Source: Octopus vulgaris
Lineage: Eukaryota
Reading direction: 5' to 3'
Length of the DNA stretch: 64,000 nt
Assembly (NCBI GenBank): GCA_951406725.2
Contig: OX597818.1
Span: forward strand, 38,874,001 to 38,938,000
The stretch's first letter is position 1. Every line of letters starts with the position of its first letter. Positions 13,004 through 61,965 of the stretch are shown piece by piece. The notes beneath the pieces were generated by a model. It ran no database searches. It was given only the letters and a program-made list of their open reading frames with translations, and was not told the DNA's origin. Both the position numbers and the translations under genes were made by a program.

Positions 13004-13287
13004 TAGTGCGTGTGCTTATTTGGCAAAAAAAAAAAATTATAAAAATAAAAACTGCCCCCCCCCCCCCCCCGAAATATGGCAATGTCTGTTCCTGCACACG
13101 GTTTTACATTAGGGATCAAGCAACATAAATTTCTAAACGATATATTTACTATGAAATGAAATTTTGAAAAGGCGCTTGAAAGCAGTAACTCAACACTAAG
13201 TGTTACATATAGAATTATAGGTTAGGGCAATATAGACAGCCCGCTTAATCTGGATATCTATCAAACATGGTAATATGCACTGCAATA

Positions 13288-14048: not shown

Positions 14049-14248
14049 AATATCCACAGCAATAGTCTATTATGCATAGACCAGTATTGTGTGAGCGTGG
14101 TTTTATGTCGTGTGTATATATGTATAAAAGTGACCGATAGAATTAGTAGGCTTACAAAGGATAAGTCCTGGGGTCAATTTCTTCGACTAAAAGCGGTGTT
14201 CCAGCATGGCCACAATGAAATGAGTGAAACAAGTAAAAAAATGAAAGA

Positions 14249-14808: not shown

Positions 14809-15245
14809 GAAGTGGAACCGCAAAGGATGGAACCAAACAGCGCACACGGGTGTGTATGTTCTACCTGAGAGGTTCCTGCTGGCATGGAAAGGAAGGTGCA
14901 GACTGCCGCTTTGCAAATCGGGGACCCTGCCACAGAGACACGAGGCAGATGGACAAACCATCAATACAAAGAAAAGGGATGGACCACGCACCACGTGCCC
15001 CAAAGCGGAGGTACGCAGATGTTGTGCGCGTCACAAACAGCCAACATGATGTTGTCGAAAGAGCAGCTGCTGAGCAACAATGTTTTTTGTGCATGGCACA
15101 AAAGATTGTACAGCAGCTGACCTGGCTTCATCAAACCCAAGCCCGCAGGTGGGACTACCCACTATATACCAGACCACCACAGCAAACAGACACAGGATGG
15201 ACACCGCCGGCAACAACATACACCTCACCTCGATACTCCTACTGA
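14809..15245 (+). pseudogene. LINE ORF1 C-terminal remnant with degenerate CCCH-type zinc finger
   Basis: [22 protein letters not shown] (C-x7-C-x8-C-x3-N, where H is expected); overlaps the start of ORF2. Confidence 0.55.
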
Positions 15246-17335: not shown

Positions 17336-18236
17336 TACAAAAGTTTCACAGGCAATACAGAACCCTGAGGACACTAAACACCTGCAATGTGAGCTGGACG
17401 AAATATACAAGTGGGCTGAAAAGAATAGCATGCAATTCAATGCTGGAAAGTTTCAAGCTTTATACTATCAGCATGCAAAACTGAATGCAATACCCAATGA
17501 ATACACTGGACCCGGAGGGATTGCAATCCCAGAGGCACAATCAGTGCGTGACCTGGGTATTCACATGAGTGATGACGCGACCTTTCATGTACATGTTGCT
17601 AAACTGACAATGAAATGTAGACGGCTGGCTGGATGGATTCTTAGAACCTTTAGAACAAGAGAACAAGAAACCATGATGGTCCTCTGGAAGACACTTGTCC
17701 TAAGCCACTTTGACTATTGCTCTCAGCTATGGTCACCATCCAGTGTCAAGTTGATCACAGAACTTGAGGCGATCCAACGAAGCTACACAAAGAAGATAGC
17801 CTCTATGCAGAATGTAAGCTACTGGGAAAGACTCAAGAGATTAAAATTATATTCCCTGGAGCGTAGGCGGGAAAGATATGCCATAATATACATCTGGAAG
17901 ATCCTGGAGGGAAGTGTCCTGAACTTTGGCATCGAGAGTTACGCAAATGCCAGAACTGGGCGCCACTGCGTGGTGCCTAGGACTCCAAACCTGCCATCAA
18001 GATGTAGGACAAGATACTGTGATAGCCTGGGCTTCCGAGGCCCACAGCTCTTCAATATCCTCCCGAAGAACCTGAGAGACCTGCATGGGGTGGATACAGA
18101 TGTCTTTAAAATGAAGCTGGATCTCTTCCTGTCAGGTGTCCCAGATGAACCAACTTCACGGCAGGAGGGGCAGATGAGGGCAGCTGCATCGAACTCTCTC
18201 ATGCACCAAATAGCAGCTGCTAGAAAGCCTCCATGA
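17274..18236 (+). CDS. LINE ORF2, C-terminal part (after frameshift)
   Basis: YADDTK catalytic motif, RDLGI, DYCSQLWSP and LYSLERRR; the frameshift is caused by a 43-bp duplication. Confidence 0.9.
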   Translation: MALSDMPSATQRATITSYADDTKVSQAIQNPEDTKHLQCELDEIYKWAEKNSMQFNAGKFQALYYQHAKLNAIPNEYTGPGGIAIPEAQSVRDLGIHMSDDATFHVHVAKLTMKCRRLAGWILRTFRTREQETMMVLWKTLVLSHFDYCSQLWSPSSVKLITELEAIQRSYTKKIASMQNVSYWERLKRLKLYSLERRRERYAIIYIWKILEGSVLNFGIESYANARTGRHCVVPRTPNLPSRCRTRYCDSLGFRGPQLFNILPKNLRDLHGVDTDVFKMKLDLFLSGVPDEPTSRQEGQMRAAASNSLMHQIAAARKPP

Positions 18237-22382: not shown

Positions 22383-24228
22383 GTTTCACAGTTTACACTG
22401 ATTTTCAAAAGATGAGATAGAAAGACGTGGGTTATGCCGCAACTGTCTTGCTTCTGAATTTCTTTATTCAGAATTGGGGCGGGGACTAAACAAGGACTGT
22501 CTTACACAGGGCTGGGGTTACAACCGTGATAAATTTGAATAAATCGAGATGATAAATCGAACATTAAACCGAGAAGTGGAAATGCGAAGCAGTGGAAACC
22601 CTCTATAAAACTCCGCAGTAGTTGCTTCGCTGCCGGCATTGCTCCCCCCAGGAGAACAGGTCTCCGCTTGATCCATGTGTCAATTGTGGAAAGAGGAGCA
22701 GACAATCCCGGCGACTTGTCCCCTGGGCACTCAGAAAGCACCTCTATGACTTCCTCAGCTGTGATCGGCCCTTCACAGCGCTCAGCGTCATGTGCCGAGA
22801 GACGCAGGCCACGGGCTAGGAAATCCCGTAGGACATCCCAATGGTCCAGCGTCCCGCTCCTCCCGAACAACGCAGCAAAGTGCTAGTGAAAGGTCTTGCA
22901 CATCTCTTCCTGTCCTTGGATCTTCTGTCCATGTTCGTTTACCACAGTCCTTATCGTAGCATCTATGCCACGTTGGGTTTCTACCGAGTGAGCCCACCCA
23001 GCAACGTTGATACCCTCGCGACCCAGTGCACGTACTTTAGCTCGAACTCTGCATCCTTCGTGTTTGGCATTGAGGTGTTGGTCCAAGACCGATCTCGCCG
23101 CCAAAACTTGGGGTGCAGAGCCTATTCTCAGCGTCTCTTCTAACGCCTTAACTAGATCCCTTTCTACTCTAGTCTATTCTAGACTTAACTGCTTGCTAAA
23201 TCTAATAGACTCAAGTATAATGGCTCTTTTGAGGGCACACCACCACCGGTTATTTAACACGGTGCCGGTTAGTGCCCTCATTACTAACATCTTAATCTGG
23301 CTACGATAAGTTTCGTAATCCAAAAGGGACTTGTTCAACTTCCAATAGCCAGATCCCTGTCTATGGACTTTATCTATATGCATCCTGCACGTCACTAATT
23401 TGTGATCCGTGTAGACTACACAGGTGAACTGTGAACAGCTAAAACTAGACTTATCTCTAGCGTTAATTATTATCCTGTCTATATAAGACCTGACTGATTC
23501 ATCGGTATTAGTTCACATTAGAACGCTCGGATTATCAAGTCTGTATCGATCTGCCAGCCTAGACCGCTTCAGCAGATCGATGAGGTGTGAGTTACATTTC
23601 CTATCGTTCGAGCCTACGCTGTCCTGGCGTCCATCCAAAATAGCGTTAAAGTCTCCTAGCAAAACTAGTGTTTTGACGTCACCAGAAAGGTCTCAAGGCG
23701 TTGATAGAACTCATTCCATTTGTCTGTCGTGCCAGGCGCGTAAATCTCAACCAACCTGAAGGCCTTACCTATGAATGTTAGATCCAGAACTATCGACTCG
23801 CCTCTTGGGTCCACGAAGATCGTACGTGTCTGCAGGGCCAAGTTTTTCCGGAGCAAAACTACAACGCCTCCATTCTCCCTATCCAACTAGGAGACATGAT
23901 TTTCTCATAGCCATTCAGGAAAGTTGAGAAAGCCTGCAGCTTGTCCAACTTGGTCTCTGTAGCAACCGTAACATCAATTCTGTGTGTCCTGAGGTCATCG
24001 AGGAAACAAGCCTGCTTCTGCTTCGAGCCCAGGCCACGTACATTCAAGAGCTGTCTTGCTTCTGACTAGTATTTGAAGATTGTCCTATTTTTATATACTA
24101 TTTTATGCCACGTACTCCCTATAAAGAATAGGACAAACTTCAAAGCACTTGTCAGAAGCAAGACAATTGCAGTATAACCCACGTCTTTCTATCCCAACTT
24201 TTGAAAATGAGTGTAATCTGTGAAACCA
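22383..24228. mobile_element. Fold-back/MITE element interrupted by a Tx1-like insertion
   Basis: 22383-22457 is the reverse complement of ~24152-24227; inner arms at ~24066-24092 and ~24121-24151. Confidence 0.75.
22458..24050 (-). mobile_element. Tx1/L1-clade LINE derivative: endonuclease + linker joined to the 3' end, RT deleted
   Basis: NVRGL, ATETKL, IYAP, GYWKLNKSLL and KSPG motifs; tail AATAAAGAAAT; 15-bp TSD CTGTCTTGCTTCTGA at 22443-22457 and 24051-24065. Confidence 0.88.
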
Positions 24229-25016: not shown

Positions 25017-25136
25017 CCCTCATCGTTGTGTATTTTTATGTTTTTTGATTTATTATTAGTGTTGCTTAATATGTTTTGCTAAAATTGCAGTTTCTTTTCA
25101 GAGAACATCAGAAAAAGGTAATTAAAATTCATTAAA

Positions 25137-25952
25137 ATGAGAGATCTATCGAACTTCCAAAGTGGTCAAATTGCTGGTGCTCGTATGACAGACGCTAGCG
25201 TAACAAAAACAGCCGAAATATTTGGTGTATCAAGAAGTACAGTCTCGAAAGTAATGACAGCCTCTTCATCGAAACAAAACTCCAGAAGAAAACCAAAACT
25301 TTCAGATAGTGACCGTCGGACTCTTACGCGAATTGTTAGAAATGATCACAAAAGTACAACTCCCAAAATTACTTCAGAGCTTAATGACCACCTCGAGAAC
25401 CCAGTTTCCACAAAATTTGTTCGCCGGGAGCTGCACAAAGCTGGATTTCACGGGGGTGGGGCTGCAATCAGAAAACCACTACTTTCAAAAACAAACGTTG
25501 CAAAGCGTTTAAAGTGGAGTAAAAACCTACAGAATTGGTCCCTAGAGCAGTGGAAGAATGTCATTTTCTCGGACGAGTTATCCTTTACCTTATTTCTAGC
25601 CACCGGCCGAGTATACGTGTGGAGACAGCCAAAAGAAGCATTTGACCCAGACTGCCTTCTTCCAACTGTTAAACATGGAGGAGGATCTGTGATGATCTGG
25701 GGGTCTATATCTTGGAAATCCGCCGGCCCAATTGTTTCCCGTCATAGCAGAATTATTGAACATTTATTGTGCATTTTAGGAAAACAAGTAATGAGTCAAT
25801 ATCCTCCACCATCATCACTACATGAACTGGAGACTGTTTTAGCTGAAGAATGGGTAAAAATTCCTTTGGAAACAATTCAAACTTCGTACGAGTCCATACC
25901 TCATAGAATTCAAGCTATAATTACTGCCAAAGGCGGTCCTACCCCATATTAA
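25137..25952 (+). pseudogene. Tc1-family transposase, internally deleted; right TIR ends near 26004
   Basis: HTH region, RKPLLS, W..VIFSDE, PTVKHGGGSVMIWG and AKGGPTPY; the middle catalytic D/E segment is missing. Confidence 0.9.
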
Positions 25953-29181: not shown

Positions 29182-29581
29182 AACAATGTCTGTATTTGAC
29201 TGGACACAAAATGGACAAATTCATTGAGAAAATGTAGTGTCCTGCGTATATCGTTTCAATGTCATTAGTGCCTTATATAAAACAAAACGTTGTAAGCGGT
29301 AACTTAAAAGAGCAAACATGTCACAATAGCCTCAATCGTTTAGTGATAAAACTGCCCACAGAAAGAGTATAGAATGATTTTCGCGCCTTGGCTATTAAAC
29401 AGCTTAAATAATAATTTTAATATAATTACAATGCCAAAATTTTGTAGGACGGGTTAGTCGATGAAATTGCCCTTAGTACTTTATTTTATCGATCCCGCAA
29501 GAAAGAAAAGCAAAGCTCACCTCGGCGATGTTTTGAATTTAGAACGCAAAGAGCTGTAATAAATACTGTAAGGTGTTTTGT

Positions 29582-29910
29582 AGAAGAATATAGATGAGTT
29601 TGTGTTGAGGTGTGAAAGGGAGAATTGGGAGGTGAAAGATATAAGAATGAGCGATGAATTCGTGGAAAAAATGGAGAAGGGTTTTGGAGTAAGAATAGAT
29701 ATGGATGGTCTTCGTATTGGGAATGAACATTCAGGTGACAGTGGAAACAACAGGACAGGTAAGTGGTGCTAGCGGATGGGGCCGTTGGCACCGCTTTCAT
29801 ATATCATTTTCAAAATTCATTATACTCATATCTATGTAATTGTGATGCTCTATGTCCCCAATGTTTGTAACGTCCCCTCTATGTAGCCCCTAGTGGGTAA
29901 TAAAGAATCA
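29582..29910 (+). mobile_element. 5'-truncated ORF1-only (HAL1-like) retroelement inside an old family B SINE
   Basis: Homologous to ~32085-32400(-) (CERENWEVKDIRMSDEFVE); tail GCCCCTAGTGGGTAATAAAG; 17-bp TSD ACTGTAAGGTGTTTTGT. Confidence 0.8.
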
Positions 29911-30846
29911 ACTGTAAGGTGTTTTGTTTTATATTTTAAAGATTCTACCAATCCACAGATTTCAGCAATTTAAATAATGCGATATGACTAAAGCAGGTAA
30001 TAGAAACATAGTTGTAAACTGGCATGGCAGCTGTTGATTTTGACCGACAAAGCATGTTGTCAGTATTTGTTTAAAAAAAAAAAAAGGTTAATTATCCAGA
30101 GATGCTATTTGCATGACAATCAAAACTGAAGTAAGGATAAAGACATTCAATGTAGTGCATAAAAAAATCTAATTAGCAATGGTAATGCGGTGAGGAGAAC
30201 ATTAACAAAATGGCTAATAATATTTTAATCGCTTTCGCAAATACCGAAGACAACTCTGAACATGTTTCTGTCTTATTAAATTAATCGATCTCTTACATGG
30301 AATCAAGGTTGTATATTTGTGGGGGGTAAAAACAACTAAGATAGAGTACATCGTGATGATCTTTAATATGGGCTCAAGGTAAGACATTGGTGAGAGTTGT
30401 AAAGTCAAGTAATATTGATCTAAATCATATTAGTCTATAACATGGGCACAAGGCCACATATTTAGCGTGGGTGTGTGGGTAAAGCTAACTAAAATAGACC
30501 CACATTATATAACTAGCTCGTAGAACATTCGACGTAAACGGACAGAAAGGCAAAGACAAACCTAACTCCATTGGGATTCTATCTCGGAAGAAAGACTGAC
30601 AAAACTAAATACTGTTGGCAATTAGTCGGATACTTGTCTGTCTCAGACATTTGCTATTTCCTCCATTCTTTTCTACTCTAGGCAAACGGTTACTAAAACT
30701 TATGGCCACCTACATTTTTGGGAGGTGGAAACTGACATACGTAATAAAAAAAAAGTGAAAGAAATGAAATATCGCTATATTAAACTGGAATTACCTTTTC
30801 TTTGTGATAGATATAACAACTTACCATGACGTAAGTTCACCTGGTG

Positions 30847-30953
30847 ATTCTTTATTACCCACTAGGGGCGACACAGAGGGGGACACCAAGAGACATGGGG
30901 ACATAGAACATTATAATTAAAATTTATGAAAAATGAATTGTTAAGTGAAAGAA
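30847..30953 (-). mobile_element. 3'-tail-only copy of the HAL1-like element
   Basis: Nearly identical to 32081-32180; 18-bp TSD ACGTAAGTTCACCTGG(T/A)G. Confidence 0.88.
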
Positions 30954-32080
30954 ACGTAAGTTCACCTGGAGATTTACTGAATGCATGTAGCATTGTTAAA
31001 CGCCCAGGAATGCAAAGAAGTGTACAGAAAGTGCCTTCCCACGCACACAAAATTTCTTCTACAACAAAACATGCATACGCATACTTAACATAATGATGTT
31101 TTCTAAAGATATGTCAAACGAAGTAAAAAATAAAATGAATAACTTGTTCAGTATAATACTAGTGTTCTATTCTTTATCTGGTGTTTCACTATGACGGAAA
31201 ATTTTTATCGATTTGGAAAAATGTCTATTGTTACCAGATAAGTTCGACTACATTCATAACTTTTCTATTAACAATTTTGACCAAGTTTTGACGTCAAATT
31301 ATTTAAGTGAGCTCTAGCATCACTCCATGTATTAATTGCTATTTAGGAAAAAAATGACGAAATCAAAACAAAACTAAGGCAAGACCAACAATATTTAATT
31401 TAATGGATATTTGTAGCTTAAAGTATAAAGTAACTCGGTCTGATTAAATGGCATTCTATTATCAGGTTATCGAATAAATTCCGTCCAAATTTTGAATAAA
31501 AAACAAGTGATCAAATGTTATATTTAATTGAAATTTAATCATCAATGTACTTTCCCTAATTATCTATGACTTCTTTCCATCTATCTACAATATTTTTAAT
31601 CCCATCAATGTAAAACTCTTTTGGTTTCAAAGCGAAGAAATCTGAAATGTCAGTTTCAACCCCCTCCTGGCTTGCGAAAGTTATCTCCCCCAAATGATTC
31701 TGTAAACTACGAAACAAATGATAGTCTGAAGGAGCAAGGTCGGGAGAATAAGGTGGATGAGGAATTTTTTCTCAACCAAGCTCTTCGATCTTCTGTGATG
31801 TGATCTTTGCAGTGTGGGGTCGCGCATTGACCTGATGAAACGTCACTTCTTTTCGATTCACTAAAGCGGGTCTTTTTTTATCTTCAAAGCTTGGTTCAAA
31901 CGCTCTAATTGCTGACAGTAGACTTGAGCATTGATTGTTGCATTAGGTGGTAACAATTCAAAGTGAATTACTCCTTTACAATCCCACCAGATAGAGAGAA
32001 AAACCTTTTTACCATGAAGTTCCCATCTCGGTTGTGGTTGAATGCCATAACCAATAATGTGATGCTCTGCAATATATGTG

Positions 32081-33020
32081 ATTCTTTATTACCCACTAGG
32101 GGCGACACAGAGGGGGACACCAAGAGACATGGGGACATAGAACATTATAATTAAAATTTATGAAAATGAATTGTTAAACGAAAAAATGATAAAATGAAAG
32201 CGATACCAACGGCCCCGTCCGTCAGCATCACTTACCTGTCCTTTGTTTTTCATAGTCACTTGAATGTTCTTTGCCAATACGAATAAATTCCATATCCATT
32301 CTTACTCCGAAATACTCATCCATATTTTCCACGAATTCATCGCTCATTCTTATATCTTTCACCTCCCAATTCTCCCTTTCACACCTCACCATAAACTCAC
32401 CTATGTTCTTCTTTTCAATCACAGCATACCTAGTCTCACCAACATCATACCATTTATACTCTTCCATTAGACTTTTAACTTCTTTCTGTTCAGTCATAGT
32501 ACAAATGTACGGCCTGATATCGAATTCAATCTCTTGTGTGTGTGTAGTATTTTTTTTTCTTTTGTTTTCTTGTTGGGGGGGAGCGGGTGGGTTCACTGTC
32601 TGCATGGATAGGGTGGGACTCAGAGGGCGTGGGTGGTTTTGGGGTGGATTGGAGTTCCATATTATTTTCTTTTCCACGTATTCTTCTCTTCCTCTTATTT
32701 CCAGCTTCCTTCCATTTCTGTGTATTCTCTTCCTCTTCTACTGTCTCCTTCTCCTCTGGTTTCTGCTTCTCTCTCTGTGGTTCGGAATCCATTTCTTTCC
32801 CTGGGGGAGGGCAGAAGGCTCTTATGTGACCCCTCAGGCCACACTTGTAACAACGTGGAGCCCTGCCCTCCACCCACACTCTCATGATCACGTCTCCCAA
32901 TCTGATGCTTTCCGCCAGGTCCACCAGTACCTCGTTCTCCGCCTGTACGTTCAGCTCCACTGTTACGCCTCTCCAGCCCTCGGACTTAACCGAGGCATGG
33001 AGAATATCCACTTCGTCCTC
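32081..33020 (-). mobile_element. 5'-truncated ORF1-only (HAL1-like) Tx1-derived retroelement
   Basis: Zinc knuckle VEGRAPRCYKCGLRGHIRAFCP; ORF1 stop followed after ~145 nt by the tail and AATAAA; 17-bp TSD GCTCT(G/A)CAATATATGTG at 32064-32080 and 33021-33037. Confidence 0.85.
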
Positions 33021-33595
33021 GCTCTACAATATATGTGTGTATATATTTCGCTTAATTCATTTTTGCTTAAATTATGCAAATTACCTAGACCATAACTGTT
33101 TTCTACTGTTTGTATAAGTGTAAGTCCTGTATTTACTGCAGATAAGATTGGACAATCGTCGAGCTGCCGAAGGCTGGTTACAACTGTCCTCTTATCTCCA
33201 GACAATAAACCTGTCTTTTCCCTTAATGGCATATCAGTTTTGAAGAAACCTTGAATTTTGAGATTATCTTCCCTTCTCAAGTGGAGGCGGTAATAATTAA
33301 CATTCGATAATTATGATGCATCATCTAGAGGCGGAGATGGTTTTAATAAATCAGAAAATTTCGTGGTACTTGACATACCGGTATTTTTATTCATTTATTT
33401 GTTTCAAACAGTTGAGTGTGGTCATGTTTTGCACCGCATTGAAGGGTTTTATACGAACAAATCGATCCCAGGACTTATTTTTAAAGCCTAATACTTGTTC
33501 TATCAGTCTCTTTTGATGAACCGCTAAGCTACCGGGACTTAAACATACAAAAACCGGTTGTCAAGCGGTGATGGGAGAACAAAGACACACACACA

Positions 33596-35874: not shown

Positions 35875-36254
35875 GATAAATAGATTATCCGAAATGTATA
35901 GTTTTAAAATCCATCACGGCTGATCTTACCAATCGGTTTTGCGTAAAGATATCAATGGAGTGCTGGGTAACAAATCGATTACATAACTTTTCATTGGTTA
36001 TTGATTTTCCCTCTGATTAGTTTGGGGATGAAAATGTCAACATCAGCCAAAGTAGTAATTAAATTCCTTCTATCTGTACAATGAGACACACAGCTTTAGA
36101 CACACACACGCGCCCGCCTCTACACTTAGATGACCAACACATAGCCCAATGGTCTATGGTTCTTTTCTTATCCCTTAAACATCTTAATGACCTTACAAAC
36201 ATTTTATTCTTCATCCCAATACTTTCACCAGGTTATATATATATCAGTATATAT

Positions 36255-36486
36255 ATTTCTTTACTACCCACAAGGGGCTAAACACAGAGGGGACAAACAA
36301 GGACAGACAAAGCGATTAAGTCGATTCCATCGATCCCAGGGCGTAACTGGTACTTATTTTATCGACCCCGAAAGGATGAAAGGCAAAGTCGACCTCAGCG
36401 GAAATTGAACTCAGAACGTAACGGCAGACGAAATACGGCTACGCATTTCGCCCGGCGTGCTACCGTTTCTGCCAGCTCGCCGCCTT
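36255..36486 (-). mobile_element. SINE family B monomer
   Basis: Full head and tail; TSD TATATATCAGTATATATA. Confidence 0.9.
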
Positions 36487-46920: not shown

Positions 46921-47346
46921 ATGAAGTTACCAGATGTAAATCTCATCTCGAACACACGCAACTATCTTTCCCACATTTCCCCCCCTTATCTTTAAACATA
47001 ATTCTCTCCCTGATATAATCATAGACTCACTAGCAGGACGGTAGTTGTTGTAATCACTCAACTACAAGAAATAAAGCCACTTCTCCTTCAAATCCATCTC
47101 TAACATAGGGTATTAGAATTGAAATAATTTATTGCAAATCGTACAACGAAAGACTACATATCGTTGTGTACGTAATATGAACTCATACTCCCAAAATTTG
47201 ACTTAACACGAAAATTAAATATAAATAGTTGATATAATGTGCATACTGATATAGATAGCAGCAGTTCCATATTAAATTTAAAACTGTTTTCTAGAGGGAG
47301 AGAGGCAAAGCTTTCAATATAAAAAGCATAAGTATAAAATAGTATT

Positions 47347-47920
47347 TTTTTCTACTCTAGGAACAAGGCCCGAAATTTTTGGGGAAGGGGGCCAGTCGAT
47401 TACATCGACCCAGTACGCAACTGGTACTTAATCTATCGTTCCCGAAAGGATGACAAGCAAAGACGACCTCTGCGGAATTTGAACTCAGAACATAAAGAGA
47501 TGAAATACATATTTCTTTACTACCCACAAGGGGCTAAACACAGAGGAGACGAAAAGGGACAGACAAACAGAATAAGTCGATTATATCGACCTCGGTGCGT
47601 AACTGGTACTTAATTTATCGACCCCGAAAGGATGAAACGCAAAGACGACCTCGGCGGAATTCGAACTCAAAACGTAGCGGCAGACGAAATACCTATTTCT
47701 TTACTTCCCACAAGGGGCTAAACACAGAGAGGACAAATAAGGACAGACAAACGGAATAAGTCGATTACATCGACCTCAGTGCGTAACTGGTACTTAATTT
47801 ATCGACCCCGAAAGGATGAAAGGTAAAGTCGACCTCGGCGGAATTTGAACTCAGAACGTAGCGGCAGGCGAAATACCGCTAAGCATTTCACCCGGCAACT
47901 TTGTGCCAACTCGCCGCCTT
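47347..47920 (-). mobile_element. SINE family B tandem array (one head, 3 units)
   Basis: Same junction; 16-bp TSD AGT(A/G)TAAAATAGTATT. Confidence 0.9.
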
Positions 47921-48404: not shown

Positions 48405-48953
48405 ATGGCAGAAATGTTAACACGCCGTGCGAAATGCCTAGCGGTATTTCGTCTGTGTTACGTTGTGAGTTCGAATTCCGCCGAGGTCGACTTTGCCTTT
48501 CATCCTTTCGGGGTCGATAAATCAAGTACCAGTTACGCACTGGGGTCGATGTAATCGACTTAATACCTATGTCTGTCCTTAGCCCCTTGTGGGTAATAAA
48601 GAAATAGGTATTTCGTCTACCGCTACCGTTCTGAGTTCAAATTTTGCCGAGGTCGACTTTGCCTTTCATCCTTTCGGGGTCGATTAAATAAGCACCAGTT
48701 ACGCACTGGGGTCGATATAATCGACTTAATCCGTTTGTCTGCCCTTGTTTGTCTCCTCTGTGTTTAGCCCCTTGTGGATTGTAAAGAAATAGGTATTTCG
48801 TCTGCGGTTACGTTCTGAGTTCAAATTCCGCCGAGGTCGACTTTGTCTTTCATTCTTTCGGGGTCGATAAATTAAGTACCAGTTGCGTACTAGGGTCGAT
48901 CTAATCGACTGCCCCCTCTCTCCTCCAAAATGTCGGGCCTTGTAGAAAAGAAT
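48405..48953 (+). mobile_element. SINE family B tandem array (3 units)
   Basis: Units restart at GGTATTTCGTC; the last unit has the alternative tail. Confidence 0.88.
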
Positions 48954-49197
48954 ATTTCTTTTTTTAATTGGCCACTGGTAGAAAAGAATATTAAGCGAGA
49001 AAAGTAATGTGAAGTGCTGAAATAAGACCGTGAATCAACTTTTGCGCCCGCGCACACACACAGACGTGTGTGTGTGTCTGGGTAATAACCTCCAAAGCTC
49101 CTATACAGTTATCAGCTATCGTATGGTATTATATCGCAAGATTACTCCTTTTATTGGATATACATGTGGAAATCTGTTAGTATATGCAAAATATAAA

Positions 49198-51383: not shown

Positions 51384-52235
51384 TTAACAGGAATCCACAT
51401 CCGTTATATAGTCATCGACAGACTGTATATCAAACACTTTCACATTTTCTGACCCAAATTCTGCTAAAATGAGCGTTGATCCATCAGGAGTTACAAAAAT
51501 AGATCCAGGATTCGAAATCGCGTTTGGTTTCGTTTTTAGAACATAATGAAGTCTACCCGCTGACGTAAGGCAATAGATTTGGTTTTGCATTCTACAGGCT
51601 ACATAGATATAACCATTTTTATCTACAGAAACGCCAGAAGGACATTTCAAAGTTTTTTTAGCTCCTTGGTAAAAGAATTTTATATCACCACTTAGATTGC
51701 AGCGAATTAATGCCTGGTAGCCATCGCTTCGTACTTCACTGAGGAGAAGATCACCTAACGGATGCACAGCTAGATAAGAGGGAAATGAAATACGGAGACC
51801 ATTTGATGAGAATGCGGAGAAGCTGTGTAACACATGACCCCTGTAATCGATGACGTCTATGTAGCCTGGACAACCACATTTACCACAGATTAATGAATTA
51901 TCAACAGCTTCAATGAGAGCATAGTCTTTTGCTGTGGGAATGTCAAGCGAAGGAAAAAGTTGGTGTCCAAATTTCACGAGAAACATAATCATATATTCTC
52001 CTTGTAATGTCACTACAATTTCTCCTTCAGGTGTAACGCATGCCCTTCTTGGAGACGACTGTAGATTTAACACACTTAAACATACACCCTCTTCGCAGAA
52101 CGTCTTTAATTTTTTATTAGAGTAGTCAACTGCTATGATATCTGTATCATATCTAAGTATCGTCGTCAGACAGCATGTCGTAGTATCAGAAGGTATTCTC
52201 GCTGAAAAAGAGCGTAGCAATTGCAAGGCACTCAT
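51384..52235 (-). CDS. Stand-alone NHL-repeat/six-bladed beta-propeller protein (similar to the C-terminal domain of TRIM2/3/71-type proteins), 283 aa
   Basis: Uninterrupted non-repetitive ORF with blade motifs IIAVDYSNKKLK, PRRACVTPEGEIVVT, FPSYLAVHPLGDLLLSE, CPSGVSVDKNGYIYVAC and NPGSIFVTPDG..VKVF; AATAAA downstream on minus (~51262-51267). Confidence 0.82.
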   Translation of the reverse strand: MSALQLLRSFSARIPSDTTTCCLTTILRYDTDIIAVDYSNKKLKTFCEEGVCLSVLNLQSSPRRACVTPEGEIVVTLQGEYMIMFLVKFGHQLFPSLDIPTAKDYALIEAVDNSLICGKCGCPGYIDVIDYRGHVLHSFSAFSSNGLRISFPSYLAVHPLGDLLLSEVRSDGYQALIRCNLSGDIKFFYQGAKKTLKCPSGVSVDKNGYIYVACRMQNQIYCLTSAGRLHYVLKTKPNAISNPGSIFVTPDGSTLILAEFGSENVKVFDIQSVDDYITDVDSC

Positions 52236-52771
52236 TGAAGATTGTTCTGTAGCGGAGCTTATTCTGCTGTTTCTGTCTCCCTCTTATTGTCTTTTTTTAA
52301 AAAATACAACTCCCGAATTGTTTTATTTCATAACATACGATATTTTCATGCAAACTAGTTCTGCCTTCTTTGTTTTTTAATGAAGGGGAGTGGAGCTTAG
52401 TTATCGAACAAGTCAAGTTTACTTTTCAGAAATATTTTCAGTCATTTGCTCTCAGTTTAGTTGTAAACATGCACATCGAAAGTTCAAAACTAAGCTTCAT
52501 TAAAAACACTAAAAGATGAATTTCAAACTTATTAAAAAAATATGTGATGCTTTCTGATTTTTGTCTTCTAAGATAGTTGCTAATATTTCATATACTGCAT
52601 TATATCTTCTTTTCTACTCTAGGCACAAGGCTCGAAATTTTTGGGGAGGGGGCCAGTCGATTAGATCGACCCCAGTACGCAACTAGTACTTAATTTATCG
52701 ACCCCGAAAGGATGAAAGGCAAAGTCGACCTCGGCGGAATTTGAACTCAGAACGTAAAGACATGAAATACC

Positions 52772-54681
52772 GATTTCTTTATTACCCACCAGGGGCTAAC
52801 ATAGAAGGTACGTGCACAATATCGGGGAACTAAAATTATAAAAAGGAGACATAAAAAAAGAAGCAAAATTAAAAGAAACGAATGAATCATGAAAAAGATA
52901 ATATAATGAGGCGGAATGCCCACTCGACCCCCGAAGTCGAGTGGTTACATCGAAACCGTTTTGCCGTTCAATCATACTAATCTAAAATTCAGCAGTTCAA
53001 TATTGTAGTCATTTTTTAGTTCGATATACCAGGTCTGTTTTGGCAATTGCTCTCTTTCCCCGACCACCTTCCACAACTCAATACCCTTATCATACTTTTT
53101 TACCATCTCCATGTGTGCCTTATTTAACAATTGACATATCATAGGATCACCATCTTCACCCCAGAATTCCACTCGCTCCCCCGGTTTACAGCGTCACCCT
53201 CCGCGTCCGCATACAAAACGCAAGCAAAACAAACAGGGGGAGAGGGAGCCATATCTACATCATGTGTGTTTGCATTTTTTTTCTGTTTTGTTGTTGGAGG
53301 GGAATGGGTAGGTTTGGTGTCTGCGTGGGGAGGGTGTGGTGAATAGGGAGAGGGAGGGCACTAGGTGGGTTGGGGGTTCACAAGTACTTACTTTCTTTTT
53401 CTTTTTTTTCTTTTCCCGGCTATTTCCCGGCTATTTCCCATTCTCTATCTTCTAATACTGGAGTTTCTCTTTCTACTTCTTGTATCCTCTCCTGTGATGG
53501 TGGTTGTCGCTCTTCTACCATTTTGGGTGGTGGAGGGCAGTTCACTTTTATGTTGCCTTTCTGGCCACATTTAAAACAGCGAGGAATCCTGCCCTCCATC
53601 CACACTTTCAGGATCAAATCCCCAATCCACAGGTTCTCGGGAAATACTTCGAGGACCTCCACCTCAGTTTGGACGGTAATTTCGATGTTTTTGCCCCTTC
53701 CATGTTGCTCCTTCCATCACTTCCGCTTGAATTACTTTCACCTTTTTTTCTCTTTCAATAAAGAGAGTCGCCACCACCCAAGCCGCATCGATTTCAGGAG
53801 GAATCCCTTCCACTTTGATTTTGGCAATCCTCTTGCCCATGTAAGACGGCAAGAGGAGTACCTTTTCCGTTTTTAACACTTTGGCAGCTTGGGCTCTTTC
53901 CTCTGTTTTATAATGAACGATAATCGTCCCGAACTTGCTTCCTCTGGTCAGGTAGGTAATATCTGCTCAGACTGTCATCAGCGTCTTGTCTATCACTTTC
54001 TCCTCCATGTGGTCGACTCTCTTTTTCTAAACTGAGTAAACTTTGTACTTTACCATCTTCTTTTGGATTTCCTCCATCCTTGGCTGTCGTGGGGACAACC
54101 TCACGTCGTTCCCCACCTTTACAGCCATTCTACTGTCTCTTTCCATATTTGCCAGGTTTATTTTCTTCCTTCTCATCTCGGTTGCCTCTGCAAAACTTTT
54201 CTTTTCCAGATATGCGTCCAACATCTTTACTGCCTTAATCAGTTCTTCCTCCGAAGAGGACAACTCAGTTTCGCTTAGATCCGAATATACACGACTTCCC
54301 CCTGCCATCTCTCAGTACTACCGAGAGACAGCACAACAACTCAAAAACTGCTGCAAACGCAGCACAAAGAACAACAAAATCAATCTGTAATACACAATAT
54401 ATATTTCTTTACTACCCACAAGGGGCTAAACACAGAGGGGACAAACAAGGACAGACAAAGGGATTAAGTCGATTATATCGACCCCAGTGCGTAACTAGTA
54501 CTTATTTAATCGACCCCGAAAGGATGAAAGGCAAAGTCGACCTCGGCGGAAATTGAACCCAGAACGTAGCGGCAGATGAAATACCGCAAAGCATTTCGCT
54601 CGGCGTGCTAACGTTTCTGCCAGCGCGACGCTTTCTGTAATACACAATATAGCTAAACAAACAAGCTCGTATAACTCACAG
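52772..54681 (-). mobile_element. Apparently full-length ORF1-only (HAL1-like) Tx1-derived element, frameshifted
   Basis: 5' UTR, ORF1 from ATG at 54308 (LLPSYMGKRIAKIKVEGIPPEI; MEGRIPRCFKCGQKGNIKVNCP) to ~52972, then 3' UTR and shared tail; no EN or RT. Confidence 0.82.
54402..54633 (-). mobile_element. SINE family B monomer nested in the 5' UTR of the HAL1-like element
   Basis: Perfect 18-bp TSD TCTGTAATACACAATATA at 54384-54401 and 54634-54651. Confidence 0.92.
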
Positions 54682-55147
54682 AGACGAAATACCTATTTCT
54701 TTACTACCTACAAGGGGCTACATACAGAGGGAACAAACAAGGACAGACAAACGGATTAAGTCGATTATAGCGACCCCAGTGCGTAACTGGTACTTATTTA
54801 ATCGACCCCGAAAGGATGAAAGGCAAAGTCGACCTCGGCGGAATTTTAACTCAGAACGTAACGGCCGTCGAAATACCTATTTCTTTACTACCAACAAGGG
54901 GCTAAACACAGAGGGGACAAACAAGGACAGACAAACGGATTAAGTCGATTACATCGAGCCTATTGCGTAACTGGTGCTTATTTAATCGACCCCGAAAGGA
55001 TGAAAGGCAAAGTCGACCTCGGCGGAATTTGAACTCAGAACATAACGGCAGATGAAATACCACTAAGCATTTCGCCCGGCGTGCTAACGATTCTGCCAGC
55101 TCACCGCCTTATACCGCATCATATACTACTACATTTATGTTCTATGT

Positions 55148-55333
55148 ATTTATCCCCACTTAAACATGGATGTACTGTTAGAACAAACTATACTGTGGTA
55201 ATCAAAATGAGAGAAACTTTCATATTGGCTTTTGATGCATTGCCAATATGAGTTTCTCTCATGGTAATCACCGCAGTTCTAAAAGAACATACGTAGTTCT
55301 AACAGAACATCCACGTTTAACTGGGGATAAATA
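55148..55333. mobile_element. Fold-back MITE
   Basis: TATTTATCCCCACTTAAACATGGATGT pairs with ACATCCACGTTTAACTGGGGATAAATA, plus an inner hairpin. Confidence 0.7.
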
Positions 55334-56233
55334 TTACTTCTCGGTATGCATCATTAATATTGCCTCTATCGCTAATAAATATTATCCTCTATGATACAAG
55401 TGTGGTATACGAAATGTTTTAAGGAAAGCATAATAATTTGATTACATGAGCTTTATATTCTATCGTTTACTGTTTGAGACCAGCACGGGTTACTCCTCAT
55501 CATCGTTTTTATATTCAAACGCTGTGCAGAAGTTGCATACAACATTCTCTCAGCTTTCAAAACTTAGCGTATAATTAGTACTGAACTTTTTAAGGCTTAT
55601 TGATACATTCCAAAATAGCTTAATTGTCAATTTGTATCTAATGCAGTTTCGTTTCGATGTGGCCAGAGAGAAGTGTTTGCCTTCTTAATTCCTCTAAGAA
55701 GGCAAAAACTTTTTACACATACATACATACATACATACATACATACATACATACATACATACATACATACATACATACATACATGCATGCATGCATGCAT
55801 ACATACATACATACATACATACATACATACATCTAATATAATAAATGAGAAAACTTATTTCTGTCTGTCAGTGCGACACACTTAGACTCCCTCTCTCACT
55901 ATTCAATGACACTCCTACTATTCCTCATGATGGGGTGAGAGTAATAATAGGCATAAAGACGGTGAGGGCAGTGGCGAAAACAGAGAGAGAGAGGGAGGAG
56001 AAGGAAAAAGGGAGGGAGAGAAAGAGAGACAAAGAAATTTAGGGGGAGTTGATGATGCTTTATTAAAAGTAGTAGTGTTGATGGTGGCAGTGATAGTATT
56101 AATAGAAAAAAGAGAAAGAGTGAGTATATGAAAGAGGGAAAGGATGTACAACTTTGATTAACCATGTCTGTTTGACAGAAATTCCTGTCACCAACATACT
56201 GAACACTATCATTTTTGTTTTATTTTTTCTTTC

Positions 56234-56279
<46 letters not shown>

Positions 56280-56371
56280 GAGAAATTCACTTTAATTGAA
56301 ATAAAGTTTCCCCAAACTTAAACAATATAATAAATGTGAATGTCAGTGTGTCAGACTTTTTCAACTTTAAT

Positions 56372-56760
56372 AAATCCTTTCTACTGGAAGCACAAGACCT
56401 CAAATTTTGAGGGAAGGGATTAAATTGATTACATCGACACCAGTACGTAACTGGTACTAATTTTATCAACCCCGAAAGGATGAAAGGCAAAGTCGACCTC
56501 GGCGGATTTCGAACTCAAAACCGTAACGGCAGACGAAGTACCTATTTCTTTATTGCCCACAAGGGGCCAAACATAGAGGGAACAAACAAGGACAGACAAA
56601 GGGATTAAGTCGATTACATCGACCCCAGTGCGTAACTGGTACTTTATTTATCGACCCCAAAAGGATGAAAGGCAAAGTCGACCTCCGCGGATTTCGAACT
56701 CAAAACCCTAACGGCAGATGAAGTACCGCTAAGCATTTCGCCCGGCGTGCTAACGATTCT
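56372..56760 (-). mobile_element. SINE family B array (2 units) whose head is split by a LINE; the rest of the head is at 61925-61956
   Basis: Head sequence continues on the far side of the LINE. Confidence 0.88.
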
Positions 56761-59700
56761 TAATTTTTTTATTATCCATAAGGACATACATAGAAGGGAC
56801 AGCACAATGAAATCGAATGGTTTTACATGAAATGCGATTGGGGTCCTTTTAAGAATTCTAAATACATTATATATAATACGGATGATGATAGGACACAATA
56901 AGACATAACAGATGGAGTGGAGGTGGGTTTATAATGGACCCCACGAGCCCCACCTTACCACTGACCTGGGTTTCACGCGGAGCCTTTCATGCCCAACATT
57001 CGTGCGACATTCTTCCATCTTTTTCCAAACATGTCTTCAGTCAAACATCTCCTCTCCAGCCCTATTTGCCTTTTTAGGTGGAAGATGAAAAAATTCACCA
57101 GATTAGGGCCAAAGATGAAGGTGCCTGACCTTATTCATTTCATTCTTGTCCTCTGTATAATCCCTCTCGCAGTTGCTACTTCAGAAAGAAAATAATTCTT
57201 ATCTTCTTTCGTTAAGAAATCCGGTGAGTTAATTTTCACTATAGATTCAGTCGACAGCTGTACTCTTCCTCCACCTGACATCAGTTGTTCGGCATAAATC
57301 CACACGTCAGACACTTTCGGGCACTGAACGATAGCATGCGGGACGGTTTCCTTGTCCCGCCCACATCTTGGACAGATCGGAATGTCTCGGTCATTGTGCC
57401 TTGAGAGTTTATCCTGGACAGGTAAAGCTCCGCGGTAACACTGCTATACCAAAGACTTCTGGAAATTATCCAGGGTCTTCGGCCCGAATGTACGTTGGAA
57501 CAGACTGGCCAGCTGATTATCGTCAAAACGTAGGGTCTCCCCCAATGTATCATCACGTTCCGCCTCTACAAACCCTCTATAAAAGACAGCGGTGGAACCA
57601 CTACCACATGCATTGCCCGAGCGACGGAAAAGCAGGAGTGCCTTGAGACACTCCGTATACTATGTACCCAACTTCGATTGAACCAGGTTTCCCGTCCACC
57701 GAAACTAGTGAACCTGGGAAACATCTGCTTCGCCAGCGAAGACCACACTCGTTTCCCATCCAGGTAGAGTCACAGGCGCCTCAGCCTCAGCGCATGTCTG
57801 CGCATCAATAGTCAAGGCATCCCTAACCCACCCTTTAACGGTTGTTGACAGCAAATAGATTGTCTCACAAGCGGTTTCAAGCCCTGCCACAAGAAGTAGA
57901 AGAGCTGTCTTTCCAGCTTGGTCAACCACCGCCTAGACCAGGTCTTGGCAATGTGGGTCATCTTGCTCGATACCTCGGTTCAATTCTTCTCTATTTGGAG
58001 GTCTGGTCCGAACCAAACTCCTAGCAAATTAATCGGACCCTCCGTTCAACGTCCCACGACGCTGTCAGAAGGTATCGACTTGCCTCTCCAGATGCCGAGC
58101 TGCAAGCCGAAAGACTTTTCACGATTAACTTCTGCTCCTGCTACAGTCTCGTATTTTTCAATGGCCTTGCTTACCCTCTGTAGGTGAACCATTTTGGTCA
58201 CGATGATGGTGATGTCATCCGCGTAGGCAGAAACCGACATCTTACAACTTGGCTGTCTCGGAATGTCACTCAGCTTTCGCAGCAATGGCTCAAGAGCCAT
58301 CACATACAAAAGTGGGTAGAGCAGACATCCTTGACGAACTGAGCATTTGACGTAGAACGGTTTAGAAAGAATGCCGTTCACCCGAACTACCGAGTCAATG
58401 CTGTTATACATTTGAACGATCCACCTGAGGAAGCCAAGACCCCAGGCCGAACTGTGCCAGAACGGACACCAGGTAGTGATGGTCAACTCTATTAAAAGCT
58501 TTTGATTGGTCTAAATGGACCACTGCTCCTCCCCAGCCGGAATCGTTATTAATTTCCTCTTTAGTGTATCGTATAAGATGGAGATTATCCTGAATGGATC
58601 TGCCAGGGATAGCACATGTCTGTGCTCCCCCAATCAGCCCATCCGCAACACGCGCCAATCTTTCGATACCACTTTGGCCAAAATCTTCAGCTCTGCGTTG
58701 AGCAGAGTGATGAGCCTAAAATTATCAATGACATCGCCCTTGTTCGGGTCCTTTCTGACGAGCGTCACCACTCCCCGGCGTACAGATCTGGGGATGAGCC
58801 CATTCTCTTGCCAGTTCGCGTAGACAGCTCGTAGGGTAGATCATCCAGCCCTGGCGCCTTACCCACGCCGCAGTCCGACATAGTCTCTTTTATCTTCTCA
58901 GGCATGATCGGCCCCTCACTACACCTCGCATCCTGCCCCGAGAGGCGTGGAATATCGGCGAGAAAATCCGTTAGTCCTTCCCACACTCCGGCCCCCCGCC
59001 CCCCACGAAAAGCTGGGCGAAGTGGTCCTGAAAGCTCTCACACATCTCCTCGGGATCGTCTATCAACTTACCTTTGTTGGTTCGTCAAAGATCGAATTGT
59101 GGCATCATTGTCACGTTGGGCTTCCATTCGGGCCCATACCGCAGCATTGATTCCCTCGCAACCCACTGCATGTTATGTACGCCCTGACAATGCAACTCGT
59201 GTGTTTGGCTTTGATGTGCTGGTTTAACACCAGTCTCTTGGCCTTCACCTGAGCCGCAGAGTTCGCATTGCTTCCTCTAAGTCCTTAACTAGAGCTGATT
59301 CCCTTCTAGCCTCTCTAACCTCTCTAGTCAATAAACCTATGCTATATCTCATAGACTCATATTTAATGGCTCGCTTGAAGGCATACCACCATTTGTTGTT
59401 AATAATGGATCCGCTTAATGCCCTTTGAATTAACATCTTAATCCGGTCTCTGTACTCATTAATCGCCAAAAGGGACGTATTAAGTTTCCAGTAGTCGGGA
59501 CCTCTATATAACTTATCTATTTCGAGATTACAGGTGACCATCTTGTGATCACTGTTGTTGACCATGTGAAATTGTGGACACCTAGCTAAGTTCTTATCTA
59601 CTTTTCTAACTAATACTCTATCTAGATAAGACCTGGAAGATCCGTCGCTATTTGCCCATGTCAAAACGTCTTAGTAGTACCTGGAAGCAAGCATTGCTTC

Positions 59701-61924
59701 TCCTATTAACACACGAGCCAACATAATCTACGTGTGCATCACAGATTGTATTATAGTCTCCTAGCACAACTAAGGGATGTGATGTACCAAGAAACTTCTC
59801 TAGGTTCCGATAATATTCAGTTTGCCCCGTATCTTGAGGTGTATAAATTGCAACCGGTCTGACAGTCTTACAACGACTGAACGTCAAGTTAATGACTACC
59901 CGCCTATCTTCTGGATTTGTAAAAATCAACCTTTTCTCAGAAACACGTTTTTTTTAAGAGGATCAACACCCCGCTCCCGCTAAGAGGACAGCACGGAGAG
60001 ATGAAACTCTCGTAACCGTCAAACAGCGGTAGCAGATCTCTCGGCCCCTTCAACAGGGTTTCTGTAGCAACAACAACATCTAAATCCCGTGACCTGACGT
60101 CATTTAGGAGGCGTCCATGCTTCCAACTAGACGTCAGGCCACGCACATTTATACATCCAACATGAATGCTTGACGTGGACTTACCTTAGTCAATGGTACT
60201 CTCTTTTTCACTGGTTCGTCGGGTGATATTCTGGCATAGGTCCTCGTACATCGACTTGCTAAAATCAAGTCTTGGAGGACCCATGTCAGTTGGGTGGTAG
60301 TTTTTAAAAATGTTATAGTTCATTTTATCTATTTTATAAATGGCAATATTTTCTGGAGTCTTATGGTGATGTTTGTAAATTGACGCCGTTGGTATTTGCT
60401 TTAACCTTTTTTTTAATTGTTCGTTATCATTGTTTATTGCAGTTAGTATTTCCTTACATTCGTTAGATTTTCTTGAACTTGATATCGGGGACAGATTGCC
60501 TGGGTTTGGCGGGTGAGGAGTGATGTCTGGGAGAGGGAGGAAATCCGAACCAGAGGAGCAAGGGGGAGGGGAATCATCGCCGAGGGGGAATAGGATGGGG
60601 AGGAATCTGATATTTTTGACTTGGGGGGGAATAGTGGTGGGGTGGGGTAATTTTTCTCTGAGTATCCTGAGTTTTTCTTTTGGTTGTTGTAGGGTTGGAT
60701 CTGTTGTTATTATTTTTCCCTTTTTGGCGTCTTACTACCGACCAGCCGTCTTTTTCCCCGGCTCGTTGAACACCATCAGTGCCGGGGTTCTGCTGGTCGT
60801 TCTTTTGGTTTTGTTCTTTTTTTCTTCTTCTTTCTCCTTGCGGGTGGGGCAGTTTACCCGAATGTGGCCTTTTTCGCCACATTCGTGGCATCTGGGTTTC
60901 CTGCCCTCCACCAATACCCGCAAGGTGGCTTCTTCTCCGATGTGCATGTTCTCTGCAATTTCTTCTAATGTCGGGGGCGGGGGGGGGGGGACTTGGACTA
61001 TGATCTCTAGCCCTTGGCCCCGCCAGTACTGTTGTATTCTGGAAGTTTCAATCATTTTGATTTTATCCTCAAACCCCATTAGAAGGTCTGAGATAATCCA
61101 GATGGCATTTATTTCTGGTGCGATTTCTTCAATAACTATTTTGGATGTTCTGCTACCCATATAAGTTAGTAATAAAATGACTTCATTGGTTTTTATCGGT
61201 TGGAGCGAGTATTTTATAGCCTTTTCCTCATTTTTGAAGTCCACCACAGCTGTGGCGTATCTTCTCCCTATGGTCAAGAACTCGATGTCTTGCCAAGATG
61301 GGTTGTAGACACTTCTCGATTTGTTCTTTGGATTCCTTGTCTATTTTCTTGTCTGTTATTATCATAGTCTTATATGTTATTATTTTCCTCTTTGTTCCTT
61401 CGATGAGTTCGTTAGGGAGGGTGGCTTTAACTTCAAAACCTTCCCTTTCGAACATACCTTTGTGTTGCCGCGGTGAATCTAGCTCTATGTTCAATTTATT
61501 TTTTCTCACACCTGCTGCGGTGACAAAATTAATCTTCTTTTGGTTGTCTTCTGTTGGGTTTACTTTTCCGTTATTCATTTTATCGTTTTCAGCATTTATT
61601 TTTCCTTCTTGGTTCCTTTTCCCCGTTTACTGCATTTATGTGGTTTTCGTTCACATTTTCGATCATTTTGTTTTGTTTTACAGTTGCTCTTTGGTTAGCT
61701 TGGTCAGGGTTAGAAGACTTGTCCTCCGAATTCATTTTCACAAAAATAAATATTTTCCAAAAATATTTTTTCCAAAAATTATTTTCCCCTCTTTACGGAG
61801 GGGAACAACAGTCTACTATGTCTGTTAAAACAGAACGTAGAACAATAACAAAAATTCAAAATTTAACAATAAATGGCAACAATAACAATAACTAACCAAA
61901 TTCTCGCAGTTCAAATTAACCGCA
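56761..61924 (-). mobile_element. Full-length but decayed Tx1/L1-clade LINE (ORF1 gag knuckle; ORF2 EN-RT)
   Basis: ORF1 VEGRKPRCHECGEKGHIRVNCP; EN INVRGL, GDYN, YLDRVL, SDH; YWKLN; RT QTCAIPGRSIQDN, LDQSKAFNRVDH, VRQGC, AYADD; perfect 16-bp TSD GCGTGCTAACGATTCT at 56745-56760 and 61925-61940. Confidence 0.93.
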
Positions 61925-61965
61925 GCGTGCTAACGATTCTGCCAGCTGGCCGCCTTAATGTAATA

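Follow-up and report, generated by a model that had tools for sequence, protein, structure and literature searches.

We analysed a stretch of Octopus vulgaris DNA of 64,000 nucleotides, hereafter the window (positions 38,874,001-38,938,000 of contig OX597818.1; genome size 2.8 Gb), in which a long interspersed element (LINE), gag-only retroelements and a short interspersed element (SINE) end in similar 3' tails. A first-pass annotation had proposed that the LINE, acting as a single Tx1-type machine, inserts itself, the gag-only elements and the SINE into the transfer RNA (tRNA)-like head of that same SINE. The four similar tails were indeed present in the sequence where it had placed them. SINE positions are numbered here on the copy at window 36254-36486 (minus strand, 233 bp). 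Head and body occupy positions 1-168 and are followed by one of at least two tails, namely the LINE-derived B1 tail, which ends in CCCCTTGTGGGTAGTAAAGAAATA, or the B2 tail, which ends in CCTTGTGCCTAGAGTAGAAAAGA. The SINE makes up 7.8% of the window, compared to 2.8% of a random sample of 600 kb. This sample consisted of 60 stretches of 10 kb from contigs weighted by the largest coordinate known from earlier matches; it is only roughly uniform, and the smallest contigs were left out.

The LINE, designated family A, extends over 56761-61925 on the minus strand. It is of full length and both of its frames are broken. A reverse transcriptase (RT) piece at 58046-58510 matches PF00078, the piece of open reading frame (ORF) 1 contains a CCHC knuckle, and ORF2 maps on 1052 of the 1132 positions of an intact relative (L301). 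The element lies in SINE position 17, flanked by perfect 15-bp repeats, CGTGCTAACGATTCT, at 56746-56760 and 61926-61940, which correspond to SINE positions 17-31. Upstream, the head of the host SINE (positions 1-31; 61926-61956, minus strand) closes with one copy of the duplication. Downstream, a unit comprising positions 17-233 with a B1 tail (56543-56760, minus strand) opens with the other copy. The final unit of this host (56380-56542, minus strand), read directly, begins at position 50 and has a non-B1 tail; it has private variants in common with the preceding unit at about positions 50-90.

A gag-only element, designated G1, lies in a second SINE composite at 52772-54681 (minus strand). 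It encodes ORF1 with a CCHC knuckle, which is broken in this copy, and has no ORF2. The insertion is at SINE position 50, where the element is flanked by GGTATTTCGTCT and GGTATTTCATGTCT within the SINE head; the upstream copy of the duplication, GGTATTTCGTCT, occupies 54682-54693 (minus strand). The host is composed of a first unit with complete head, body and B1 tail (54878-55110), a second unit with positions 50-233 and B1 tail (54694-54877), and a final unit with positions 50-168 and a B2 tail (52606-52771), all on the minus strand. An imperfect 15-bp repeat brackets the entire composite (52606-55110). The 5' untranslated region (UTR) of G1 has itself received a full-length B1 SINE (54402-54633, minus strand) with an 18-bp duplication (54384-54401 and 54634-54651), and locus L033 represents the corresponding empty site. 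Another G1 copy, L036, carries a B1 SINE at the same place; either this place was hit repeatedly, or a piece of G1 plus SINE moved jointly. Minus its inserted SINE, G1 is about 1.6 kb long, and we found five further near-full copies.

The family A 3' UTR gave 40 matches in the genome, of which 30 loci were retrieved. All 18 loci at 82% identity or more run into SINE position 17, and none into position 50. These 18 include the window copy, one locus read by eye (L010) and one with a short deletion (L012). The remaining 12 loci (71-74% identity) belong to two other families, E and F, with other constant flanks. The target duplication of family A is 15-16 bp long. A query with its 5' end gave 30 matches, 23 of which reach the true start, the other seven being partial matches or a duplicate. 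A SINE lies directly upstream in all 23 cases: head positions 1-32 in 13, a B1 tail followed by positions 17-32 in seven, and other SINE pieces in three. A T/A variant at SINE position 21 agrees between both flanks in eight of the nine copies readable on both sides, and L020 repeats a private variant on both flanks. Two RNA runs aligned to the family A junction yielded 15 and 18 reads, mostly below 90% identity and derived from SINE tails or other families; thus, they reveal nothing on expression. Behind the first downstream unit of L341 and L342, B2 tails also lead into SINE position 17. The B2 subfamily, too, may therefore use this site; none of six B2 tails in the random sample leads into it.

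For G1, 30 of 40 matching loci were retrieved, and copies were counted as G1 at 87% identity or more when they reached the tail region. Their 3' ends lie at SINE position 50 in 12 of 12 cases and never at position 17; the other 18 loci belong to families that have only a 3' UTR stretch in common with G1 and are not at SINE heads. The site-50 duplication measures 12-13 bp. The range of 15-18 bp given in the first-pass annotation for most copies thus does not hold for site 50; the LINE and a truncated gag-only copy at 29580-29910 have duplications of 15 bp. The annotation's placement of the LINE, the complete gag-only element and the truncated copy inside SINE heads was accurate, but the sites differ (17 versus 50), and the truncated copy is antisense in a degraded head. 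No ORF2 was matched by tblastn upstream of G1 tails. With ORF1, a LINE-type 3' end, no ORF2 and several independent copies, G1 has the build of HAL1-like, ORF1-only elements. Two G1 bodies close in a B1 tail or in SINE body plus tail (L040:1640-1705, L260:1700-1807), and these joins are either chimeras or a trace of how the SINE tail was acquired. A further ORF1-bearing family, 46% identical to G1, begins at the site-50 duplication (L262:883-1890).

Because A and G1 use different head positions, we searched for an autonomous family at position 50. An exact junction pattern returned only 12 SINEs and two G1 copies, and a pattern search for a LINE closing in the whole 63-bp SINE tail gave none. 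The LINE-type tail pattern led to families with relaxed targets (1 of 28 at site 17, none at site 50). Matches of the ORF2 protein search were taken up by a young family that has a different target, while the ORF1 search returned G1, further gag elements and a second family of gag-only build (G2). A first pattern for the 5' junction found two copies of G1 and one deleted SINE. A second 5'-junction pattern produced 14 matches, 11 of which belong to a LINE family that we designated D. Since this pattern had demanded the site, family D was retested with its 3' UTR lacking any SINE letters (40 matches, 30 loci retrieved, four of them known before). All 30 loci run into SINE position 50, although L331 shows only 6 letters before N and L354 about 18. 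The seven copies with both ends all have a 13-bp duplication (SINE positions 50-62). Four copies carry ORF1 and ORF2 over 4.8-5.3 kb, and the others are internally deleted. Family D is absent from the window. Among ten checked A and D copies, there is no open frame above 372 codons and none has an intact ORF2, so the SINE-targeting system looks old. A lookup of sequencing runs listed no RNA run as containing D. Contigs of four organisms contain the SINE and D-like 3' pieces, and one of them (X4 record 28) spans the D tail and site 50 with at least 31 letters on each side, which is a weak hint only.

Judged from the site density in the random sample, the chance that a given insertion falls at either site is about 3-4 in 10,000, compared to the observed 18 of 18 for A, 30 of 30 for D and 12 of 12 for G1. 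The target SINE copies are, moreover, independent of each other. The downstream SINE halves are of mixed subfamily for both family D (17 B2, 8 B1, 3 other; n = 28) and family A (8 B2, 7 B1, 3 other; n = 18). They are more diverged (0.159) than the LINE parts (0.094 and 0.103), and the two divergences are uncorrelated (centred Mantel r of -0.02 and -0.05). One SINE copy, seen in L281/L293, has received both an A and a D insertion.

The SINE is not only a target but also, in its B1-tailed form, a frequent insert at the same positions. In the random sample, 40 B1 tails were followed by SINE positions 48-50 in 12 cases, by site 17 in two, by a head start in one and by non-SINE DNA in 25. At site 50, the 12 tails compare to 0.015 expected (about 780-fold), and 15 of 40 lie in any SINE versus 1.1 expected. 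Over all loci, a non-random sample of 161 tail-to-SINE junctions with positions taken from the alignment start, 135 junctions lie at 51-53 and 20 at 17-19. The comparison with SINE abundance that the first-pass annotation had named as its test, run on the random sample, did not refute targeting, and the breakpoints are not scattered. Among the 25 solitary B1 copies of the random sample, five begin with GGTAT.

SINE arrays with a period of 184 bp open with a complete unit, continue with units beginning at position 50 and often close with a B2-tailed unit. The window contains an array of five units, of which units 2-5 begin at position 50 (7402-8369, plus strand); one of three B1-tailed units and a final B2-tailed unit (13287-14050, plus strand); and two arrays of two B1-tailed units each, with a final B2-tailed unit at 47340-47920 (minus strand) and a final B2-type unit at 48406-48960 (plus strand), the junctions of the latter three likewise being at position 50. 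We compared rare variants in 21 pairs in which a B1 unit precedes a non-B1 unit. These variants are common to both units at positions 52-80 (9/28) and hardly at 81-168 (7/121), the pattern that a short duplication predicts. Neighboring units have a median identity of 0.91, and 7 of 81 reach 97% or more. In one case, the tail of a site-50 SINE unit contains an insert of about 120 nt of 18S ribosomal RNA (L210:2640-2757, minus strand), as a template switch of a reverse transcriptase would leave. Sites were apparently used more than once. Seven of 20 family A copies lie at junctions that a SINE tail had created before, compared to 2 of 59 randomly sampled sites (Fisher p = 7e-4), and the corresponding values for D or G1 are 10 of 17 and 12 of 77 (Fisher p = 5e-4). 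This excess of SINE-tail junctions beside A, D and G1 fits re-use; joint insertion of two RNAs would look alike.

By comparison with the box consensus, the SINE head contains conserved A-box-like (TGGCAGAA.CG) and B-box-like (GTTCAAATTCC) motifs. Site 17 lies within the former, and site 50 between the two. ARAGORN called no tRNA gene in the head, and the Rfam tRNA model gave zero matches at E values up to 10 in the heads of two window copies and six loci. A tRNA origin is therefore plausible and unproven. The element is short, dispersed and of high copy number, with target duplications and a LINE-derived tail, all of which are traits of SINE2 elements; its central domain presumably resembles Deu/Nin. 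In the last 45 letters, the B1 tail agrees with family D in 36-41 positions when the relaxed family C is counted in (D 36-40; C, represented by L175, 41) and with family A in 32, the lowest value of seven compared. The common tail is carried by at least eight related families with other targets or none and thus does not name the driver. A tail hairpin had also been proposed. The LINE tail does fold as TCC/GGA, but the hairpin (CCC/GGG) was no more stable than shuffled sequences in four of five folded tails (z 0.07 to 0.61), so that shuffling lends no support to a stable structure. The tail of G2 was the exception (z -2.4).

The gag-only elements, previously treated as one tier, comprise two families. 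The copies at 32081 and 29582 belong to G2, for which 30 of 43 matching loci were retrieved; these represent the youngest part of the family, with no separate sampling of the older 29582 type. At none of the 30 does a SINE head follow the 3' end, which excludes G2, as represented by its youngest copies, from the targeting system. Within the window, a 5'-truncated G2 copy (32081-33021, minus strand; 16-bp duplication) and a short 3' piece with a duplication (30848-30955, minus strand) lie outside SINEs. The 5'-truncated copy at 29580-29910 (plus strand; 15-bp duplication at 29565-29579 and 29911-29925), antisense in its degraded SINE head, is best read as a chance insertion. Genome-wide, G2 loci are mostly head-to-tail arrays with a period of about 1.73 kb, and some ORF1 are open (496 codons). 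These arrays (L061-L090) have short varied linkers and often lie beside copies of a very young related LINE family, designated Y.

Family Y (L145-L174 and L301, e.g., G000:C10:47707500-47714000) has many open ORF2s of 1132 codons and 5.3-kb tandem copies. At 23 of 30 loci, its 3' end runs into the same decayed ORF1-like repeat, and the constant flank of family E lies about 340 bp further on there. Y and E are thus a second case of two families with one mobile-element target. The ORF2 of the intact L301 contains PF03372, PF00078 and PF13966, i.e., an apurinic/apyrimidinic (AP)-type endonuclease, RT and zf-RVT, and among its solved relatives human L1 ORF2p is the closest (E = 8e-66), with R2 far behind. 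Copies of A and D map on it over 948-1111 of 1132 positions. They share the features of the L1 group, that is, an AP endonuclease, RT and a C-terminal zinc motif without RNase H, and also have a CCHC ORF1 before ORF2, a target duplication and an A-rich 3' end. Site-specific insertion into a repeated target, which is typical of Tx1 though not universal, was found in 18 of 18 A and 30 of 30 D loci. No Tx1-named homologue was among the homologues returned, and our trees hold no named Tx1 reference; A and D belong to the L1 group, and their assignment to Tx1 rather than to L1 proper is not confirmed.

In the ORF2 tree (22 rows; three copies with too little ORF2 were excluded), A is sister to E plus F (support 100/99), which have other targets, and D is placed without resolved support. 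A single clade of A and D, a grouping named after the first tree had been seen, was rejected by the approximately unbiased (AU) test (p-AU 6e-5). Consequently, the sequences suggest that SINE targeting arose either twice or once with a later target change in E and F. The endonuclease regions, compared in broken copies, are 52-68% identical across families with different targets. The ORF1 of G1 is about 38-48% identical to D pieces and is no near copy of that of A or D.

We conclude that two L1/Tx1-type LINE families very probably insert at two fixed positions of the SINE head, A at 17 and D at 50, and that G1 and many tailed SINEs share position 50, likely by way of the D endonuclease and RT. 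Mobilization of G1 and B1 by D is likely on the grounds of site and tail. In the mechanism we propose, the ORF2 protein of each family would nick the bottom strand before position 17 (A) or 50 (D) and prime reverse transcription at the nick, and RNAs with the common 3' tail would be copied in trans. For a SINE RNA copied into a SINE, homology near position 62 would provide the 5' junction. The result would be a seamless first unit with the whole promoter and a new tail, followed by the remainder of the old copy. Every event would leave the site on both sides of the insert, and remade sites could be hit again, giving rise to 184-bp arrays and mixed stacks. The loop is partial because 25 of 40 tailed SINE copies lie outside SINEs; these copies probably stem from insertion by the same enzymes into look-alike sequences, or from the activity of sister families that have this tail but a relaxed choice of target. 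Whether the loop closes to the extent that D spreads its own landing pad, each event swapping an older tail for a D-type tail under the old promoter and remaking the site, with A having captured the target again at another base, is a proposition that we regard as evenly balanced. If true, the close endonucleases of families with different known targets (A, D, E, F, Y and the relaxed C, H and J) would illustrate specificity switching.

Several observations weigh against parts of this interpretation. The role of D in driving G1 and B1 is deduced from the shared site and tail, and the tail by itself is not D-specific, as its likeness to family C illustrates. The re-use test is biased toward young, well-preserved sites. 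Solitary B1 copies have duplications of 14-19 bp instead of 13 (13 of 28 were measurable, two of them shorter). No SINE-in-SINE junction has a full-length 5' end after position 62, the nearest case following position 70 (L095); the homology-based 5' junction is thus required by the model rather than observed. Among the 5'-truncated copies examined, the sequence directly upstream lacks a SINE head in 14 of 14 for D and in 6 of 8 for A. A and D copies often carry large internal and 3' deletions, however, and those found via the 5' end often have no 3' end, too. Retrotransposition cannot make internal and 3' deletions, so later deletion is the likely cause of the missing heads. Finally, in B1-B1 pairs (n = 59), rare variants are common along the entire unit (0.11-0.27 versus about 0.04 shuffled). 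Arrays therefore start with an insertion, and part of their growth is due to local duplication or to one template having been copied repeatedly.

The missing upstream heads are what one would expect if a few master LINEs had landed in SINEs and read-through RNAs with a SINE tail had then been copied whole. We consider such hitchhiking very improbable. The flanks come from several subfamilies, have diverged further than the LINE part and show no correlation with it, the duplication variants match within copies, several kinds of upstream flank occur at full-length copies, and no duplication brackets the composites. The unit-wide sharing of variants in B1-B1 neighbors, together with the 7 of 81 neighbors at 97% or more, is also compatible with arrays that arose mainly at the DNA level, by slippage or unequal exchange at the GAAAT that precedes position 50 in the native head and in the tail alike; tandem SINE arrays of a clam have been ascribed to unequal recombination in the part of that report available to us (PMC11481361). 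The LINEs would then be site-specific, and the SINE would be their target without being a self-inserting passenger. This alternative is distinctly doubtful, given that neighbors are only 0.91 identical at the median, that the final unit often is of another subfamily with another tail, and that shared marks stop after about 62-80. In addition, 155 of 161 junctions lie on the two LINE sites, solitary B1 copies likewise favor GGTAT starts, and the 18S chimera in L210 points to an RNA-templated event.

A single Tx1 machine, as originally proposed, with the window LINE inserting the SINE and both gag-only families at a common landing pad, would account for the tail common to all and for those B1 tails that lie at site 17 (2 of 40 randomly sampled ones, 20 of 161 over all loci), often directly before an A copy (7 of 20). 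The A enzyme may indeed move some SINE copies. It is nevertheless hardly credible as the sole machine: A was never found at site 50 nor G1 at site 17, site 50 is owned by a second autonomous family, the A tail is the least SINE-like of those compared, and G2 is absent from SINE heads. Neither G1 nor most SINE arrays are thus likely to be driven by the window LINE. What stands of the landing-pad idea is a sequence-specific target in the head, a site that G1 shares, an accumulation of tailed SINEs and the re-use of used sites; what does not is one machine with one target. It is unlikely, in our view, that the site is chosen by RNA, i.e., by read-through transcripts or by site-complementary tail letters that anneal to the nicked target, although this could act jointly with targeting by the A and D enzymes. 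The target lies directly downstream of every copy, so a read-through RNA would carry it, and the GAAAT at the tail end is complementary to ATTTC at positions 53-57. Moreover, the D duplication (50-62) is the exact 3' arm of a predicted 12-13 bp hairpin in the SINE RNA (positions 33-62), which is weak compared to shuffled sequences (z -1.75). Families C, H, J and E, however, carry the same AAAGAAAT end, and none of 27 such non-SINE tails precedes site 50; the tail end alone is therefore insufficient for site choice.

Elsewhere in the window, the minus strand at 22500-23512 carries pieces of a further ORF2 of L1/Tx1 type, which share about 50% identity with family A. A 43-bp tandem duplication at 17212-17298 splits the long open frames (753 and 334 codons; endonuclease and RT) of a LINE of another clade (15074-18236, plus strand). 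A 299-codon open frame at 51384-52283 (minus strand) shows NHL-repeat matches and is probably a host exon, and one of 276 codons at 25122-25952 (plus strand) reads by eye like a Tc1/mariner transposase.

Target-specific LINEs have known refuges in multicopy RNA genes, microsatellites and DNA transposons. In the present case, the refuge is a SINE that is multiplied by the same kind of machinery, so that the supply of targets would grow with the activity of the elements. Such growth would explain the abundant 184-bp arrays without recombination alone. The natural series of endonucleases with different exact targets makes specificity change of AP-type enzymes directly testable. Full-text literature searches yielded no LINE that targets its own passenger SINE; they covered neither Repbase and Dfam nor subscription journals and supplements. 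The main text, as far as accessible, of a 2026 octopus repeat annotation lists L1-Tx1 and tRNA-Deu families and does not contain the words "target" or "nested" (PMC13282606).

The closest counterpart is the Tx1-Mar/SINEU system of crocodilians (Kojima 2015, PMC4494074), in which, according to the sections consulted, Tx1 families and the SINEs that travel with them prefer another mobile element as their common target and form tandem insertions around a duplication. There, too, two hot target regions serve different families, and the passengers differ in strictness (SINEU-3 90%, SINEU-1 23%, SINEU-2 13%). The target in that system, however, is a Mariner DNA transposon and not the passenger SINE, and the same sections describe no ORF1-only tier; in the octopus, the targets are single positions 33 bp apart, and insertion of the passenger remakes the target. 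Xenopus Tx1 (Tx1L), as cited in that source (PMC4494074), likewise resides in a non-autonomous mobile element, Tx1D, which differs in being a piggyBac-type DNA element that the LINE does not mobilize. G1 and G2 resemble HAL1 (half-L1) in being non-autonomous and encoding ORF1 only; the portion of the HAL1 report that we consulted states no site specificity (PMC5753468), whereas G1 is strictly site-specific. Targets of Dada DNA transposons cluster at the A box and around the anticodon, as described in the accessible part of that work (PMC8869645), which recalls sites 17 and 50, but Dada elements are DNA transposons in real tRNA genes and not retroelements in SINE copies. The SINE arrays of the clam Scapharca broughtonii also start with a complete head followed by units cut at one head position; in the passages available, unequal recombination is invoked and no LINE with the same breakpoint is reported (PMC11481361). 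Taken together, the evidence strongly supports a target-specific system of a familiar kind whose target is unusual, i.e., a twist on Tx1-Mar/SINEU and no new kind of element.

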